Below, piece after piece: positions 55,232 to 57,564 of a stretch of 64,000 nt of DNA. Position numbers and translations under genes: made by a program. Numbering within the stretch: the first letter of the stretch is position 1; each line of letters starts with the position of its first letter. Below the pieces are notes generated by a model. That model was given only the letters and a program-made list of their open reading frames with translations, did no database searches and was not told the DNA's origin. Origin of the DNA: a virus (Duplodnaviria > Heunggongvirae > Uroviricota > Caudoviricetes); the IMG/VR virus record IMGVR_UViG_2609460125_000009. One strand, given 5' to 3'.

Positions 55232-55518
55232 GCAATTTAACTTCTTGGGACTGGTGGTTGGCCACCTATTTCTTAGCGGCCGGAGTCGCATTCGCCTTTT
55301 ACGTAGGTCAGTTAGTCGTAAAACTGCTGCTGATTAAATTTGCCAGTCATAAACGTATCGATGATGGTCTGTGGCGTCTTGGCACCCTGGTGGAAACTCG
55401 CTACGGGCAACTTAAGGAGAACGAAACCATTACTATCCAAGCGAAACGATTCACTGCCACCATCACAAGAACACCTAGTCGTAGAGTGGCCTTGATCAAA
55501 AAAGTCACAACCGAATAA
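55228..55518 (+). CDS. small membrane protein
   Basis: 96-aa ORF with N-terminal transmembrane segment. Confidence 0.45.
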   Translation: MSNLTSWDWWLATYFLAAGVAFAFYVGQLVVKLLLIKFASHKRIDDGLWRLGTLVETRYGQLKENETITIQAKRFTATITRTPSRRVALIKKVTTE

Positions 55519-55538
55519 AAACATGGTGATAAGTATTT

Positions 55539-55560
55539 ACTTACTTATCTTTTATGTATA
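55539..55560. promoter_or_regulatory. motif family 2 site GATAAGTATTTACTTACTTATC
   Basis: Inverted repeat at the start of the tRNA-containing non-coding region. Confidence 0.45.
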
Positions 55561-56294
55561 AGATGACTTTGTTTTCGTTGAGACGCGACTGTTTGAACTT
55601 AAATACAAGTGCAAACGAAGAAGTCTATCTGGCAGTAGCCTAATAAGCCAAACACCAGCGAGGTCAGTTTCCAGCCTCGTTACCGAAATGGGACACACTG
55701 AGCGAGTGTGATTGCAGAACGCAGGAGGGAACATTCATGTTCCCTCCGATGAAGTAACAGAATGGGCGGTTGGTATATTTTCAACTCCATATGACTCCCG
55801 GATTCTTAGCCACTGACCGCCCATCCTGTTACGTCATTTTGTTCAATTATGTCGTTTATACTGGGTTAAAAAGCGGCGACGTAGCCCGGCTGGTATGGTT
55901 AGCCAGCACACAACGTTGAGGCCATTACATTTTTATCAATTCTAAGGTTCTATTCACAGAGATACCGGCGAGCGTTGATATGTAACATGTTGGGCAAACA
56001 TTCAATCGGAGTAGTGGCCTCAACGTTGTGAAGACAGGATTGTTGTGTAGGTTTAACCACTGTTGCCATTGGTGCCTGTTTTCACAACAAATGATTCCAT
56101 ACATCACATTGTATAAATTACAAAGTAGGTGCTGTCCTCAGAAACATCATCTACTTAAAGATTTTGCCTTCTATTGAGCGAAGTCGAAAACGTCTGGCAC
56201 TAACGGAAAGTGCAAGTAGCGGTGTGTTTCCTGGCAGAAACTAACACCGCCGCGATTGGCACTGTTGAGTAATAAATACTGGCAGTGCTGAATT

Positions 56295-56369
56295 GATGGT
56301 GTAGCTCAGCGGTAGAGCAGTTGGCTGTTAACCAACTGGTCGGTGGTTCGAATCCACCCACCATCGCCA
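56295..56369 (+). tRNA. tRNA-Asn (anticodon GTT)
   Basis: Hand-folded cloverleaf: acceptor GATGGTG/CACCATC, anticodon loop CTGTTAA, T-loop TTCGAAT, 3' CCA encoded. Confidence 0.8.
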
Positions 56370-56374
56370 ATTTA

Positions 56375-56461
56375 GGGGAGTTAGTCCGTAGAGGTAGCGG
56401 GGTAGACTGTAAATCTACTGTCATTGCGACTCGGGTGGTTCGACTCCATCACTCCCCACCA
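56375..56461 (+). tRNA. tRNA-Tyr (anticodon GTA), long variable arm
   Basis: Acceptor GGGGAGT/ACTCCCC, anticodon stem-loop GTAGA-CTGTAAA-TCTAC, long variable arm; D-arm pairing is atypical. Confidence 0.6.
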
Positions 56462-56465
56462 AATT

Positions 56466-56541
56466 GCCGGTTTAGCTCAGTTGGTAGAGCGCCTGCCTTG
56501 TAAGCAGGATGTCAGCGGTTCGATCCCGTTAACCGGCACCA
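56466..56541 (+). tRNA. tRNA-Thr (anticodon TGT)
   Basis: Acceptor GCCGGTT/AACCGGC, D-arm GCTC-AGTTGGTA-GAGC, anticodon loop CTTGTAA, T-loop TTCGATC. Confidence 0.8.
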
Positions 56542-56904
56542 ACACAACAGGTAAGAGCATTGGGCGAATCGGCGATACTGACCCACAAGCCCGTAAATCG
56601 ATAGAGTCAGACCAGTGCTCTTACCGTTGTGAGGAAGTGCAGCTCTTTGAAGCAACCAGAAGATAAGCATCTGGCTTCACAACACAACGATAAGATCATT
56701 ACGGTTAATCGTCGTTCATGTGCACAATGACTGGTCGAAAGGTAGTGATCTTACCGTTGTGGTGGATTCGCAGACTGATGCGATAGCTTTCTTGGATGTT
56801 AGGGAAATGCGGCCGCAAATCTTCCCTTTCGCGAGCGGTGATCGTCCGTAGTCCTAATTGGCTGCACCGTATGCCGGAGATTCAGTACCGGCCACCACAA
56901 CGGC

Positions 56905-56991
56905 CGGAGAGTAGGGAGCATGGTGCTCAAGCGGTCTTGAAAACCGTCCCATTGCGCAAGCGATGATGGTTCGATTCCATTACTCTCCGCC
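56905..56991 (+). tRNA. tRNA-Ser (anticodon TGA), long variable arm
   Basis: Acceptor GGAGAGT/ACTCTCC, anticodon loop CTTGAAA, T-loop TTCGATT; D-arm atypical. Confidence 0.55.
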
Positions 56992-57147
56992 AGACACAGC
57001 GTTGAGCGGTTTGGCCTTTTAATCACCCAGATTAAGACTCCGCTAACATAAACCAGACCGCTCAACGCTGTGATAGACAATTACGGCAGACGTTCTTAAC
57101 CATAGCTTGCTAACATCCTAGCAACACTTTTTTTCAGCGCAAAATTC

Positions 57148-57170
57148 AAAGGGGCTTCGGCCCCTTTTTT
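57148..57170 (+). terminator. rho-independent terminator
   Basis: AAAGGGGC…GCCCCTTT stem followed by TTTT. Confidence 0.7.
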
Positions 57171-57213
57171 GCAACTGAAAGAGTCAAGTCTACGAACTTT
57201 GTAGGAAGAAATA

Positions 57214-57564
57214 ATGACCAGCAAAGATAACACACCACTAAAAGTCACCCCTGAACACATTGAACAACTCATTCAAAGTGAACATTATTTCACTGCATAT
57301 GATGCCAGCCACGGGGATAACTTCATCTCCGTTTACAATTCAAAAACAGATATCGACAAATGTCATGAGTCGTTAAAACTCTTAACGTTCTGCGTTATGG
57401 TTCTCAAAAATGGATATACCGTAACGGGAAAATCTGCGTGCGTAAGACCAGAAATCTTCAACTTTGATGTTGGTCGCGAGTACGCTCGAAAAGATGCTAT
57501 CGATCAAATCTGGCCCCTGGAAGGCTATCTCCTGAAGCAAAAGTGGCATGAGGCAAAGCAATGA
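57214..57564 (+). CDS. hypothetical protein
   Basis: 116-aa ORF with RBS; overlaps the glutaredoxin start. Confidence 0.45.
   Translation: MTSKDNTPLKVTPEHIEQLIQSEHYFTAYDASHGDNFISVYNSKTDIDKCHESLKLLTFCVMVLKNGYTVTGKSACVRPEIFNFDVGREYARKDAIDQIWPLEGYLLKQKWHEAKQ

Follow-up and report, generated by a model that had tools for sequence, protein, structure and literature searches.

We analysed a stretch of 64,000 nucleotides (hereafter, the window) that belongs to a temperate SSU5-like phage-plasmid, and not to a large virulent coliphage, the kind of phage from which an earlier note on this DNA had cited comparable tRNA blocks. The window holds a non-coding block of 1.7 kb (55519–57213), followed directly by an ORF that begins at 57214. 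The block contains four tRNA genes, four capped hairpins (E1–E4) and further hairpins, and its first gene encodes a tmRNA-like RNA, the tag RNA. All the features described below lie on the + strand. ARAGORN found exactly the four tRNAs that had been named earlier, and Rfam agreed: tRNA-Asn(GUU) (56295–56369), tRNA-Tyr(GUA) (56375–56461) and tRNA-Thr(UGU) (56466–56541), each with an encoded CCA, and tRNA-Ser(UGA) (56906–56992). These four were the only tRNA signals above the ARAGORN and Rfam thresholds, the capped elements of the window giving none.

A promoter-like site was read from the sequence at 55536–55564 (−35 TTTACT, 55536–55541; 17-nt spacer; −10 TAAGAT, 55559–55564), with a predicted transcription start at ∼55571. 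A strict consensus promoter scan did not report this site; homologues from other phages have TTGACA-17-TAGATT or TATAGT at the equivalent position. Downstream, an intrinsic terminator-like hairpin (GGGGC-TTCG-GCCCC followed by TTTTTT; 57151–57170), also read from the sequence, overlaps a weak Rfam terminator-type match (57146–57169) and is probably the end of the operon. The region 55519–57213 would be a single non-coding operon, transcribed as one polycistronic RNA.

The four capped elements were present at nearly the positions previously given for them. E1 (122 nt; 55909–56030) is closed by 20-nt arms that are 95% complementary, instead of the 16-bp perfect inverted ends that had been described. 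E2 (89 nt; 56543–56631) begins 1 nt past the CCA of tRNA-Thr and is of an A-bulge class, CACAAC-A-GGTAAGAGCATTGG. E3 has 79 nt (56683–56761). E4 (78 nt; 56995–57072) begins 2 nt past the CCA of tRNA-Ser and is capped by CACAGC/GCTGTG, in which a compensated change has put G-C in place of A-U. The stems are 20–23 bp long. All four RNAs fold far better than shuffled controls (z = −6.5, −5.5, −5.2 and −10.4 for E1 to E4, respectively), and none of 200 dinucleotide shuffles was equally stable. In 21 orthologues of E1 the stem was kept with three compensated pairs, and the insert had no consensus fold. The capped pattern is confined to 55909–57072 and was found nowhere else in the 64-kb window; 10 of the window's 42 CACAAC/GTTGTG hexamers fall within 1 kb (55909–56901).

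Two more hairpins, also reported in the earlier note, are real with shifted coordinates. An 11-bp perfect hairpin (55724–55747; z = −4.7) occurs in SSU5-type copies only, and its arms have changed in sequence among relatives while complementarity was kept. A long hairpin with 22-nt arms (55749–55837; z = −5.9) has the variant cap GAUGAAGUAACAG...CUGUUACGUCAU, also written GAAGTAACAG...CTGTTACGTC, and shows compensatory variants in relatives. The 'about six' elements counted previously are best taken as four canonical caps, this variant and several opposite-sense units, GTTGTG...CACAAC, at 56025–56088, 56626–56683 and 56756–56901. The first of these is a hairpin, GUUGUGAAGACAGG / CCUGUUUUCACAAC (z = −3.9), and has GUUGUG in common with E1. 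Alternative folds exist because the GUUGUG of one element can pair with the CACAAC closing the next unit. A short spacer unit with a CCAGA...TCTGG hairpin (56632–56682) gave a weak z-score of −1.9; it is ∼92% conserved in pJN2-26 and, as judged by eye, is also present in P7 and D6.

The caps form a family, CACARC...GYTGTG, that accompanies tRNA/sRNA arrays in P1, P7, D6, HK620 and Klebsiella and Aeromonas phages. The arrangement recurs in Carvaje, KpV2811 and pIS4-A, and is also found in loci devoid of tRNA genes, such as that of HK620. The stem consensus is CACAAC(A)GGUAAGAGCAUUG / CAGUGCUCUU(U/A)CCGUUGUG and relatives of it. The outer stem has a mean length of 19.1 ± 3.0 bp (18–21 bp in 70/93) and encloses a poorly constrained, readily swapped insert of 23–85 nt. 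In 56 of 57 cases the cap starts at +1, +2 or −2 nt from the 3′ end of a tRNA. Certain irregularities of the stem, namely an A bulge, a U.U mismatch and a U.G wobble, are conserved.

Subsets of the stems were analysed, as a single-register alignment of all of them put subfamilies out of register. Among 45 distinct arm pairs, 91.5% and 94.2% of the cells were paired, compared to 35–44% in slid controls, and compensatory changes were observed at 11/20 and 13/20 pairs. The covariation that the earlier note had proposed to look for is thus present in the stems. The non-Watson–Crick oppositions were counted against a null of strand-symmetric selection. There were 87 G.U oppositions on the + strand and 20 on the − strand, which is ∼4:1 in favour of the tRNA strand, and the duplex was more stable on the + strand in 70 of 76 elements. 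Covariation of the stems, together with the excess of G.U pairs on the tRNA strand, places the selection on the transcript and not on duplex DNA; the G.U asymmetry is equally compatible with a single-stranded DNA of the same strand. We concluded that the capped hairpins are genuine stems, conserved at the level of RNA, and that they punctuate the small-RNA operon of this phage. Of the identities suggested earlier for these elements, small stable RNAs or processing sites fit this description, the compensation and the G.U asymmetry agreeing with structured RNAs, with processing sites or with both.

Conservation is a property of the stems and not of the inserts that they enclose. The 95 unique elements carry dozens of unrelated inserts, relatives differ by entire units, and among pairs of loci with tag RNAs at least 95% identical, the inserts were unrelated in 22 and related in 14. 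One deletion junction falls within a repeated CAACACAAC. The insert of E2 was found again in pJN2-26, inside another stem, and no insert matched any Rfam family. A D arm and a T arm lie inside the stem in six of the 95 family members, all from other phages; in the tRNA-like inserts of P1, D6, Carvaje and L038, the D arm (GCGACGUCGGAGAUCGC) and the T arm (GGGUUCGAAUCCC) are stacked on the stem. Therefore, the description 'tRNA-like' holds for some cargos only, and not for the four elements of the window. In KpV2811, a truncated tRNA 3′ half adjoins a unit. The members with tRNA-like inserts are similar to the bacterial Y RNAs (YrlA) in having a long terminal stem and a tRNA-like module with a T arm, whereas most capped inserts have no tRNA-likeness. 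The Rfam YrlA model did not match the capped elements, and E. coli, from one of the host genera, is not known to have Ro/Rsr.

One unit lying between caps, unit U (56756–56903), has the closing stem CCGUUGUGGUGG / CCACCACAACGG and two hairpins, on the 5′ side at 56768–56783 and on the 3′ side at 56873–56892. Their loops are complementary (ACUGA, 56774–56778, with UCAGU, 56882–56886), and one loop–loop position, compared in 30 unique units, is G-C in 20, A-U in 6, G.U in 4 and A.C in none. This arrangement resembles that of STnc100, an experimentally known prophage sRNA (Zhu, Shabalina and Storz, bioRxiv 10.64898/2026.05.13.724894). STnc100/PasD (RF02076) and the between-cap units have alike the closing stem UGGUG/CACCA, a 5′ hairpin, a 3′ hairpin (CCGGGAGGCACCCGG) adjoining the closing strand, and a location that in lambdoid phages lies between Q and the genes for lysis. 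The unit of the window itself could not be assigned to this family, the region 56740–56915 being unmatched even at E = 10; of the related units, that of P7 scored 43 bits and that of D6 39.6, the gathering score being 47. One type of between-cap unit is already known, as the Hfq-associated prophage sRNA STnc100/PasD; the published work on it does not mention capped hairpins or the tag RNA (bioRxiv 10.64898/2026.05.13.724894).

The first gene of the operon (55571–∼55723), absent from the earlier note, is unannotated. The core of its tag RNA is 150–190 nt, extended to 55908 in the lineage of the window. A reading frame at 55611–55646 (GCA AAC GAA GAA GTC TAT CTG GCA GTA GCC TAA TAA) specifies ten codons, ANEEVYLAVA, and then stops. 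This frame was intact in 110/110 homologues, in which the stop switches among TAA, TGA and TAG, and 11 of 14 single-nucleotide differences between neighbours fell at third codon positions; the tag is under coding-like constraint. Since 1- and 2-nt indels occur immediately upstream, the frame begins at GCA. We rejected a +1 frame (AUG CAA ACG...UAG), as its start is CUG in eight and GUG in one of 33 unique contexts and its stop is lost in P7. The tag is followed by an H-type pseudoknot (55659–55693), in which S1 pairs CGAGG (55659–55663) with CCTCG (55675–55679) and S2 pairs the loop TTCCA (55669–55673) with TGGGA (55689–55693), and then by a hairpin, S3 (CACACT / AGTGTG; 55694–55710), which in other phage families is the first stem of a second pseudoknot. 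Subsets were again used for comparison, a single-register alignment of all tag RNAs having put subfamilies out of register. In 30 homologues S1, S2 and S3 were 100% paired, with seven compensated pairs (five of them in the S1 + S2 pseudoknot) and 24–45% pairing in slid controls; S3 varies as CGCAC/GUGUG, CGUAC/GUAUG, CGCAG/CUGUG and CAGACU/AGUCUG. The closing helix of the second pseudoknot, S4, was 92% paired, as scored in the other phage families, and could not be traced in the SSU5-type RNA of the window. No PK1 was found upstream of the tag.

We found the tag RNA in 317 phage records and in 352 of 5426 complete E. coli genomes (about 6%). Its carriers include P1, HK620, Felix O1-like viruses and SSU5-like phage-plasmids. 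None of the matches listed carried an annotation of it, and searches of the literature by topic, tag peptide or stem sequence found no relevant earlier description.

The tag RNA has several features of tmRNA (SsrA): an A/U-rich context before the GCA resume codon (AUAAAU|GCA AAC GA...), a ten-codon tag of the form AN[DE]x x[YF]LA[VA]A (ANDENYALAA in E. coli), a stop codon within a short, helix 5-like hairpin, and H-type pseudoknots downstream. It differs from tmRNA in lacking an acceptor stem, T arm and 3′ CCA, in having only one or two pseudoknots with PK1 degenerate, in being phage-encoded inside tRNA/sRNA arrays, and in having a 5′ end antisense to the template region of the host tmRNA itself. 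The tmRNA covariance models gave sub-threshold matches over the tag in every homologue, the best scores being 31 bits for tmRNA_permuted (threshold 47), 21 for alpha_tmRNA (50) and 17 for RF00023 (47). At the sequence level, the resemblance to E. coli ssrA is weak and of limited extent.

We searched for the tRNA-like domain (acceptor stem with G3:U70, T arm and 3′ CCA) of the tag RNA and did not find it. The Rfam tmRNA alignments in homologues cover the tag only, and ARAGORN at default settings reported no tmRNA in the window. Its single default call of a permuted tmRNA among 108 homologue regions (L148-) was judged forced because three tRNAs separate the tRNA-like halves. Relaxed ARAGORN calls were likewise forced, pairing unrelated flanks or the arms of neighbouring capped elements, and the Rfam permuted-tmRNA alignment borrowed its T arm from an upstream tRNA-Ile, from which it is separated by a promoter. 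An arm swap between adjacent capped elements gave a tmRNA-like topology at some loci and not in the window, where a promoter precedes the RNA. Inspection by hand likewise gave no partner for the 5′ end (a CGAAAAC partner is present in just 14/108 loci), and no acceptor helix could be drawn convincingly for the conserved CCA that follows the stop codon. As the acceptor stem, T arm and CCA are missing and the Rfam scores lie below threshold, classical trans-translation by the tag RNA alone is impossible.

RNAalifold detected no conserved fold in the 5′ domain of the tag RNA, and we therefore examined pairing in trans, using E. coli K-12 ssrA as the host tmRNA. Two blocks of this domain (55571–55594) are complementary to ssrA: GUUUUCGUUG (55571–55580) to nt 95–104, and GCGACUGUUU (55585–55594) to nt 82–91, which span the resume codon. 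Both are conserved in every phage family carrying the tag RNA. The energies of these short duplexes were not outliers against mononucleotide shuffles of 22-mers; such z-scores discriminated less well than did consistency of position, alignment at the level of sequence and a scan across the whole window. When 63,972 windows of the 64-kb sequence were compared, this 5′ end gave the strongest predicted duplex with ssrA (−26.3 kcal/mol), the runners-up coming to −26.0 kcal/mol. Each of the 32 unique 5′ ends had its best alignment with the ssrA reverse complement at nt 74–106, and the mean predicted pairing was −22.1 kcal/mol with host ssrA versus −10.7 kcal/mol with the RNA's own tag, the host being the better partner in 43/43. 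The tag RNA is thus complementary to host ssrA, and this pairing may affect trans-translation, by inhibition or by replacement of the tag.

The explanation that we tentatively favour for the capped stems and the tag RNA, and would place a little short of probable, is that the stems are punctuation with RNase III-type cleavage and that the tag RNA is a tmRNA-derived antisense/tag RNA. The capped stems would serve as double-stranded punctuation or scaffold, located 1–2 nt past a tRNA CCA or behind some other small RNA. The stem would be cut by a dsRNA endonuclease of the host, RNase III being the most likely one, and the cut would free the neighbouring tRNAs and small RNAs for the last trimming and also liberate the insert in the form of a short hairpin RNA. 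In the DNA, the conserved arms could provide homology for insert swaps among phages. The stems have about the two turns (∼20 bp) of dsRNA expected of an RNase III site. RNase III processing stems are known from rRNA operons, the early-region sites of T7 and the tRNA-cluster precursor of phage T4. There, as here, ∼20 bp of dsRNA mark RNA borders in a polycistronic transcript, and the enclosed or flanking RNAs are matured later; in the present case, however, the stem sequence is conserved across unrelated phages while the insert is variable, and cleavage is putative. The stable RNAs C and D (species 1 and 2) of T4 are members of its tRNA cluster. These small structured RNAs, which have no assigned function, are likewise transcribed and processed together with tRNAs of the phage; no relationship to them in sequence or structure was seen, and the carrier here is a temperate phage-plasmid.

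Other roles for the capped elements can be weighed on the same data. The elements could themselves be the functional products. Each would be a scaffold, resistant to nucleases or able to bind protein, on which a variable insert (a decoy, a tRNA mimic or an antisense loop) is presented, and the inserts would be exchanged in an arms race with hosts or competing phages. This we regard as possible though rather doubtful, and it is compatible with stem cleavage. The swapping of highly diverse inserts between otherwise near-identical loci, the tRNA-like inserts and the recurrence of the E2 insert in a different stem all favour it, and the conserved A bulge, U.U and U.G could serve a specific RNA-binding protein just as well as they could RNase III. 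Among orthologues, however, the inserts diverge and have no common structure whereas the stems are retained, the T-loop motif occurs in just 6/95 inserts, and the Rfam search gave no family for any. An action as DNA, as MITEs or as integron attC-like sites trailing each RNA gene cassette, appears improbable. Integron attC sites are 57–141-nt imperfect palindromes with an AAC...GTT core and a variable centre that follow each cassette, and their arrays differ by entire cassettes; likewise, each RNA gene here would be followed by an imperfect palindrome with such a core, relatives vary by complete units, and one deletion junction lies in a repeat. The core fit is 6/7 to RYYYAAC for ACACAAC and 5/7 to GTTRRRY for GTTGTGR, with AGC/GCT instead in E4. 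The attC strand that folds for recombination is, however, the bottom strand and has extrahelical bases, whereas the G.U asymmetry indicates one-strand selection on the sense strand, and the stems are long and nearly perfect, their sole regular irregularities being one A bulge and the U.U mismatch. The carrier phages are also very diverse, apparently without an obvious common recombinase. The miniature mobile elements of the earlier note, in the sense of DNA transposons, are not supported either: unlike MITEs or repetitive palindromic elements, the copies are not near-identical but differ in arms and inserts, no target-site duplications were seen, the elements are confined to the operon within the 64 kb, and changes in their arms are compensatory. 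(Phages do, all the same, swap inserts in a cassette-like manner.) Least probable of all, we consider, is a descent of the elements from tRNA genes that decayed, or became pseudogenes, as the tRNAs of the cluster turned over. Remnants of T and D arms in some relatives and the tRNA half in KpV2811 speak for such decay, yet the window's four elements have no tRNA features, the stems are of 19 bp and not 7, they are under purifying and compensatory selection, and the family occurs in loci without any tRNA, HK620 being an example.

For the tag RNA, the corresponding steps would be as follows. It would derive from tmRNA, of which it keeps the resume-codon context, the tag, the stop-codon hairpin and the pseudoknots, the tRNA-like domain being absent. 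Its 5′ 24 nt could pair with host tmRNA from −8 to +15 about the resume codon, and it would thereby block the host tag template or substitute its own. The fullest form of this idea is a surrogate trans-translation template: a tmRNA-derived RNA that docks antisense on nt 82–104 of host tmRNA, masks ANDENYALAA and offers AN..[YF]LAVA, the capped hairpins being exchangeable processing cassettes. We put this forward as speculative, and judge it unlikely as a whole. A slightly more probable, though still doubtful, reading takes the tag RNA for a relic of a captured ssrA or a pure antisense sponge, with its tag-like frame untranslated. The missing tRNA-like domain and the weak likeness to E. coli ssrA agree with it, and synthetic antisense oligonucleotides to tmRNA suffice to block the release of stalled ribosomes in vitro (PMC3384345). 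Against it, the frame and its stop are intact in all 110 homologues across unrelated phage families, with variation at third positions and switching of stops, and the downstream pseudoknots are held by compensatory change.

If the capped stems are processing signals, they would explain how mixed tRNA/sRNA operons mature in temperate and virulent enterobacterial phages, and unannotated small RNAs of phages could be found by a simple rule, to search between caps. Of the two, the tag RNA has the greater importance. Nearly all bacteria possess the tmRNA–SmpB system, which is a target for antibiotics. In an exhaustive survey of 2014, ssrA was confined to mycobacteriophages and Bacillus phage G (PMC4131195). 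We found no report in the literature of a natural RNA that pairs with tmRNA. The tag RNA is a conserved RNA that combines a tmRNA-style tag with an antisense to the host tmRNA template. If the surrogate-template proposal is true, host tagging and ribosome rescue would be reprogrammed or disabled during infection or lysogeny. As the tag RNA occurs in P1, a textbook phage, and in the complete genomes of E. coli at a frequency of ∼6%, the long-standing question of phage manipulation of ribosome rescue and SsrA tagging can be tested with existing strains.

By sequence, the window lies closest to Escherichia phage CMS-2020a (97.9% identity) and Cyrano, both SSU5-like phage-plasmids. Between the end of an ORF at 55518 and the start of the next at 57214 lies a 1.7-kb block devoid of credible ORFs, where ARAGORN and Rfam placed all four tRNAs named in the earlier note (Asn, Tyr, Thr and Ser), on the + strand. 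The block also contains four hairpins capped by CACARC...GYTGTG, namely E1 (55909–56030), E2 (56543–56631), E3 (56683–56761) and E4 (56995–57072), the arms of which (20–23 nt) are 87–95% complementary. That capped structured elements occur among the tRNAs, as the same note had described, was correct and far from chance. As RNA, E1–E4 exceed dinucleotide shuffles in folding stability by 5 to 10 standard deviations; a scan of the whole 64 kb confined the pattern to this block. Two further strong hairpins are located at 55724–55747 and 55749–55837. A promoter-like site (55536–55564) lies upstream of the reading frame of the tag RNA, a tmRNA-like RNA without a tRNA-like domain that is the first RNA of the operon (55571 to ∼55723, + strand). 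The operon probably ends at a GC-rich hairpin and T run read from the sequence at 57151–57170. The 22-nt stretch AATGATTCCATACATCACATTG (56089–56110) precedes TATAAAT, which may be an internal promoter in front of the tRNAs; the stretch has a second copy ∼1 kb upstream in the relatives L001, L002 and L003 (1078–1099).

We recovered about 120 loci from IMG/VR, with 95 unique capped elements. Elements of this kind are present in the leader of the ban operon in P1, P7 and D6, between Q and the holin gene in HK620 and related prophages, and in Klebsiella and Aeromonas siphoviruses. The stem consensus of the family is CACAAC(A)GGTAAGAGCATTG / CAGTGCTCTT(T/A)CCGTTGTG, of which E1, E3 and E4 are diverged versions, and the stems enclose inserts of 23–85 nt with dozens of unrelated sequences. 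Among the relatives of the window the units are mosaic: E2 and its spacer are missing from one CMS-2020a isolate, and tRNA-Tyr, E2, E3 and the unit after E3 from Cyrano, whereas another isolate and Klebsiella pJN2-26 carry different capped elements at the corresponding places.

Several individual loci are worth describing. Upstream of the tag RNA in HK620 (L010, 575–665), the cap CUAUC...GAUGG stands on the same stem body, indicating that the cap hexamer is not strictly fixed. The element between Q and the holin gene in the E. coli LAM_HS prophage (L149, 2501–2604, compared with L150) is 100% identical to that of HK620. Some P22-like prophages keep the capped element at this position and have no tag RNA, which shows that each module is gained or lost without the other. 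In the Klebsiella virus KpV2811 (L012, ∼1035–1065), a unit is followed by the truncated 3′ half of a tRNA-Met (T loop and acceptor end only), which shows deletion scars within such arrays. The capped element after tRNA-Thr in P1 (L008, 1606–1693) and D6 (L005) encloses a tRNA-like module with a D arm (GCGACGUCGGAGAUCGC) and a T arm (AGGGUUCGAAUCCCU) and without an anticodon arm; the annotation of P1 has the putative lipoprotein gene plp starting here, on the opposite strand.

The covariation check proposed in the earlier note gave a positive outcome. Among 45 distinct arm pairs, standard pairs occupied 91.5% of the cells in the A-bulge class and 94.2% in the no-bulge class (35–44% when the partner was slid by 1–2 nt), with compensatory double changes at 11 of 20 and 13 of 20 stem positions, respectively. 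Such arms might be a protein site in duplex DNA or ordinary terminal inverted repeats. As the elements were chosen by Watson–Crick matches only, neither strand was favoured; of the remaining oppositions, 87 were G.U on the + strand and 20 were G.U on the − strand. This asymmetry ruled out both readings and places the structure on the tRNA-bearing strand. The selected structure is RNA of the + strand, single-stranded DNA of that strand being formally an alternative. In E1 orthologues the stem is maintained with compensation and the insert has no consensus fold, and in locus pairs with neighbouring RNA at least 95% identical the inserts were unrelated in 22 and related in 14. Therefore, the stem is the conserved object. 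E1–E4 and their kin are conserved RNA stems of a phage small-RNA/tRNA operon.

The outer stem measures 19.1 ± 3.0 bp on average, the size of a minimal RNase III substrate, and is located at RNA–RNA borders; in 56 of 57 cases, the cap starts 1 or 2 nt past the CCA of a tRNA or shares 2 nt with it. A dsRNA endonuclease is known to punctuate rRNA operons and T7 early RNA in this way. The conservation, size and position of the stems favour a similar role, in which such an enzyme would cut them and thereby punctuate the operon transcript, and the conserved arms may double as homology for cassette exchange. A serious rival is that stem and insert together form a scaffold or protein-binding element, and a few inserts in other phages are indeed tRNA-like, with a D arm and a T arm. 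The capped elements resemble known processing stems in kind, but are new as a described family.

The units between caps are closed in the opposite sense, GUUGUG...CACAAC. Unit U (56756–56903, + strand) forms two hairpins with complementary loops, and across 30 unique units the variable position of the loop–loop pairing was G-C in 20, A-U in 6, G.U in 4 and A.C in none. Unit U did not match the Rfam STnc100 model; sister units directly after the last capped element, upstream of terB/tciA, scored 43 bits in P7 (L006, 2247–2362) and 39.6 bits in D6 (L005, 2266–2386), against a gathering score of 47. STnc100 is a prophage sRNA found experimentally and recently linked to PasD (bioRxiv 10.64898/2026.05.13.724894). 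Within unit U, TTTCTTGGATGTTAG (15 nt, 56788–56802) is 87% complementary to CTAACATCCTAGCAA in the small hairpin directly before the operon terminator (57110–57124); the match may reflect a long-range contact or be due to chance, and was not conserved in P7 or D6.

The frame of the tag RNA (55611–55646; GCA AAC GAA GAA GTC TAT CTG GCA GTA GCC TAA TAA) encodes ANEEVYLAVA; the SsrA tag of E. coli is ANDENYALAA. Rfam aligned this stretch to tmRNA tag regions below threshold. The RNA is present in 317 phage records, from Felixounavirus and Mooglevirus tRNA clusters, HK620, P1/P7/D6, and Klebsiella and Aeromonas phages. Among 5426 complete E. coli genomes, 352 contain it, at 154 chromosomal and 208 plasmid sites. 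Of the E. coli matches listed, none was annotated as an RNA gene, and one lay under 'hypothetical protein'. The 10-codon frame is kept in 110/110 IMG/VR homologues (AN[DE][EDNT]x[YF]LA[VA]A, ending in TAA, TGA or TAG); the P1 tag is ANDDLMMVAA. In P1 the RNA (L008, NC_005856, 986–1170; ∼68.9–69.1 kb of the record) occupies an unannotated site in the ban-operon leader. It directly follows the annotated 'dicF-like region' and a terminator-like hairpin, and trnA lies downstream of it. Third codon positions account for 11 of 14 single-nucleotide differences between neighbouring tag variants, and the lengths of indels directly upstream are not divisible by three, so the frame begins at GCA, like a tmRNA resume codon. 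A stop-codon hairpin and an H-type pseudoknot follow the tag. Most families have a second pseudoknot, of which only the first stem (S3) is traceable in the SSU5-type RNA of the window. The helices S1 and S2 of the pseudoknot and S3 were 100% paired with seven compensated pairs (30 sequences; slid controls 24–45%). Neither ARAGORN nor Rfam nor a manual search for a partner of the 5′ end gave an acceptor stem, a T arm or a CCA end. The RNA is not chargeable and falls outside a strict definition of tmRNA. Hudson et al. surveyed ssrA exhaustively, and these phages are not among the entries (PMC4131195). In wV8 (L009, 902–980), the tag RNA is followed by a tRNA-Arg(UCU)-like gene with an enlarged variable region, the acceptor stem of which, by eye, has the alanine identity elements G3.U70 and A73, perhaps by coincidence.

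In reverse complement, the invariant 5′ blocks of the tag RNA match the resume-codon region of host tmRNA: GUUUUCGUUG (55571–55580) is complementary to nt 95–104 of the host (E. coli) ssrA and GCGACUGUUU (55585–55594) to nt 82–91, with a predicted duplex of 20 bp, a small internal loop and −26.3 kcal/mol. Among 63,972 windows of the 64 kb, this end ranked first for ssrA nt 70–112, others reaching −26.0 kcal/mol. For each of the 32 unique 5′ ends, which represent five diverged subfamilies, the best alignment fell in this part of ssrA (nt 74–106). Pairing was on average far stronger with host ssrA (−22.1 kcal/mol) than with the tag region of the RNA itself (−10.7 kcal/mol), the host being the better partner in 43/43. 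Synthetic antisense oligonucleotides to tmRNA have been used in vitro to stop release from stalled ribosomes (PMC3384345); we found no literature report of a natural RNA antisense to tmRNA, of these tags or of these stems.

At the minimum, the tag RNA would block the host tag template as an antisense inhibitor. Yet the phage tag is under coding-type constraint and the pseudoknots are maintained, which argues that the tag is read. The tag RNA might then dock on Ala-tmRNA-SmpB and supply a substitute template, giving the C-terminus ...LAVA instead of ...ALAA, a scheme that we consider possible but less likely than not. The tag RNA may instead be a relic or a sponge. A tmRNA-derived RNA antisense to tmRNA is the unexpected part of this locus, and it merits experiments.
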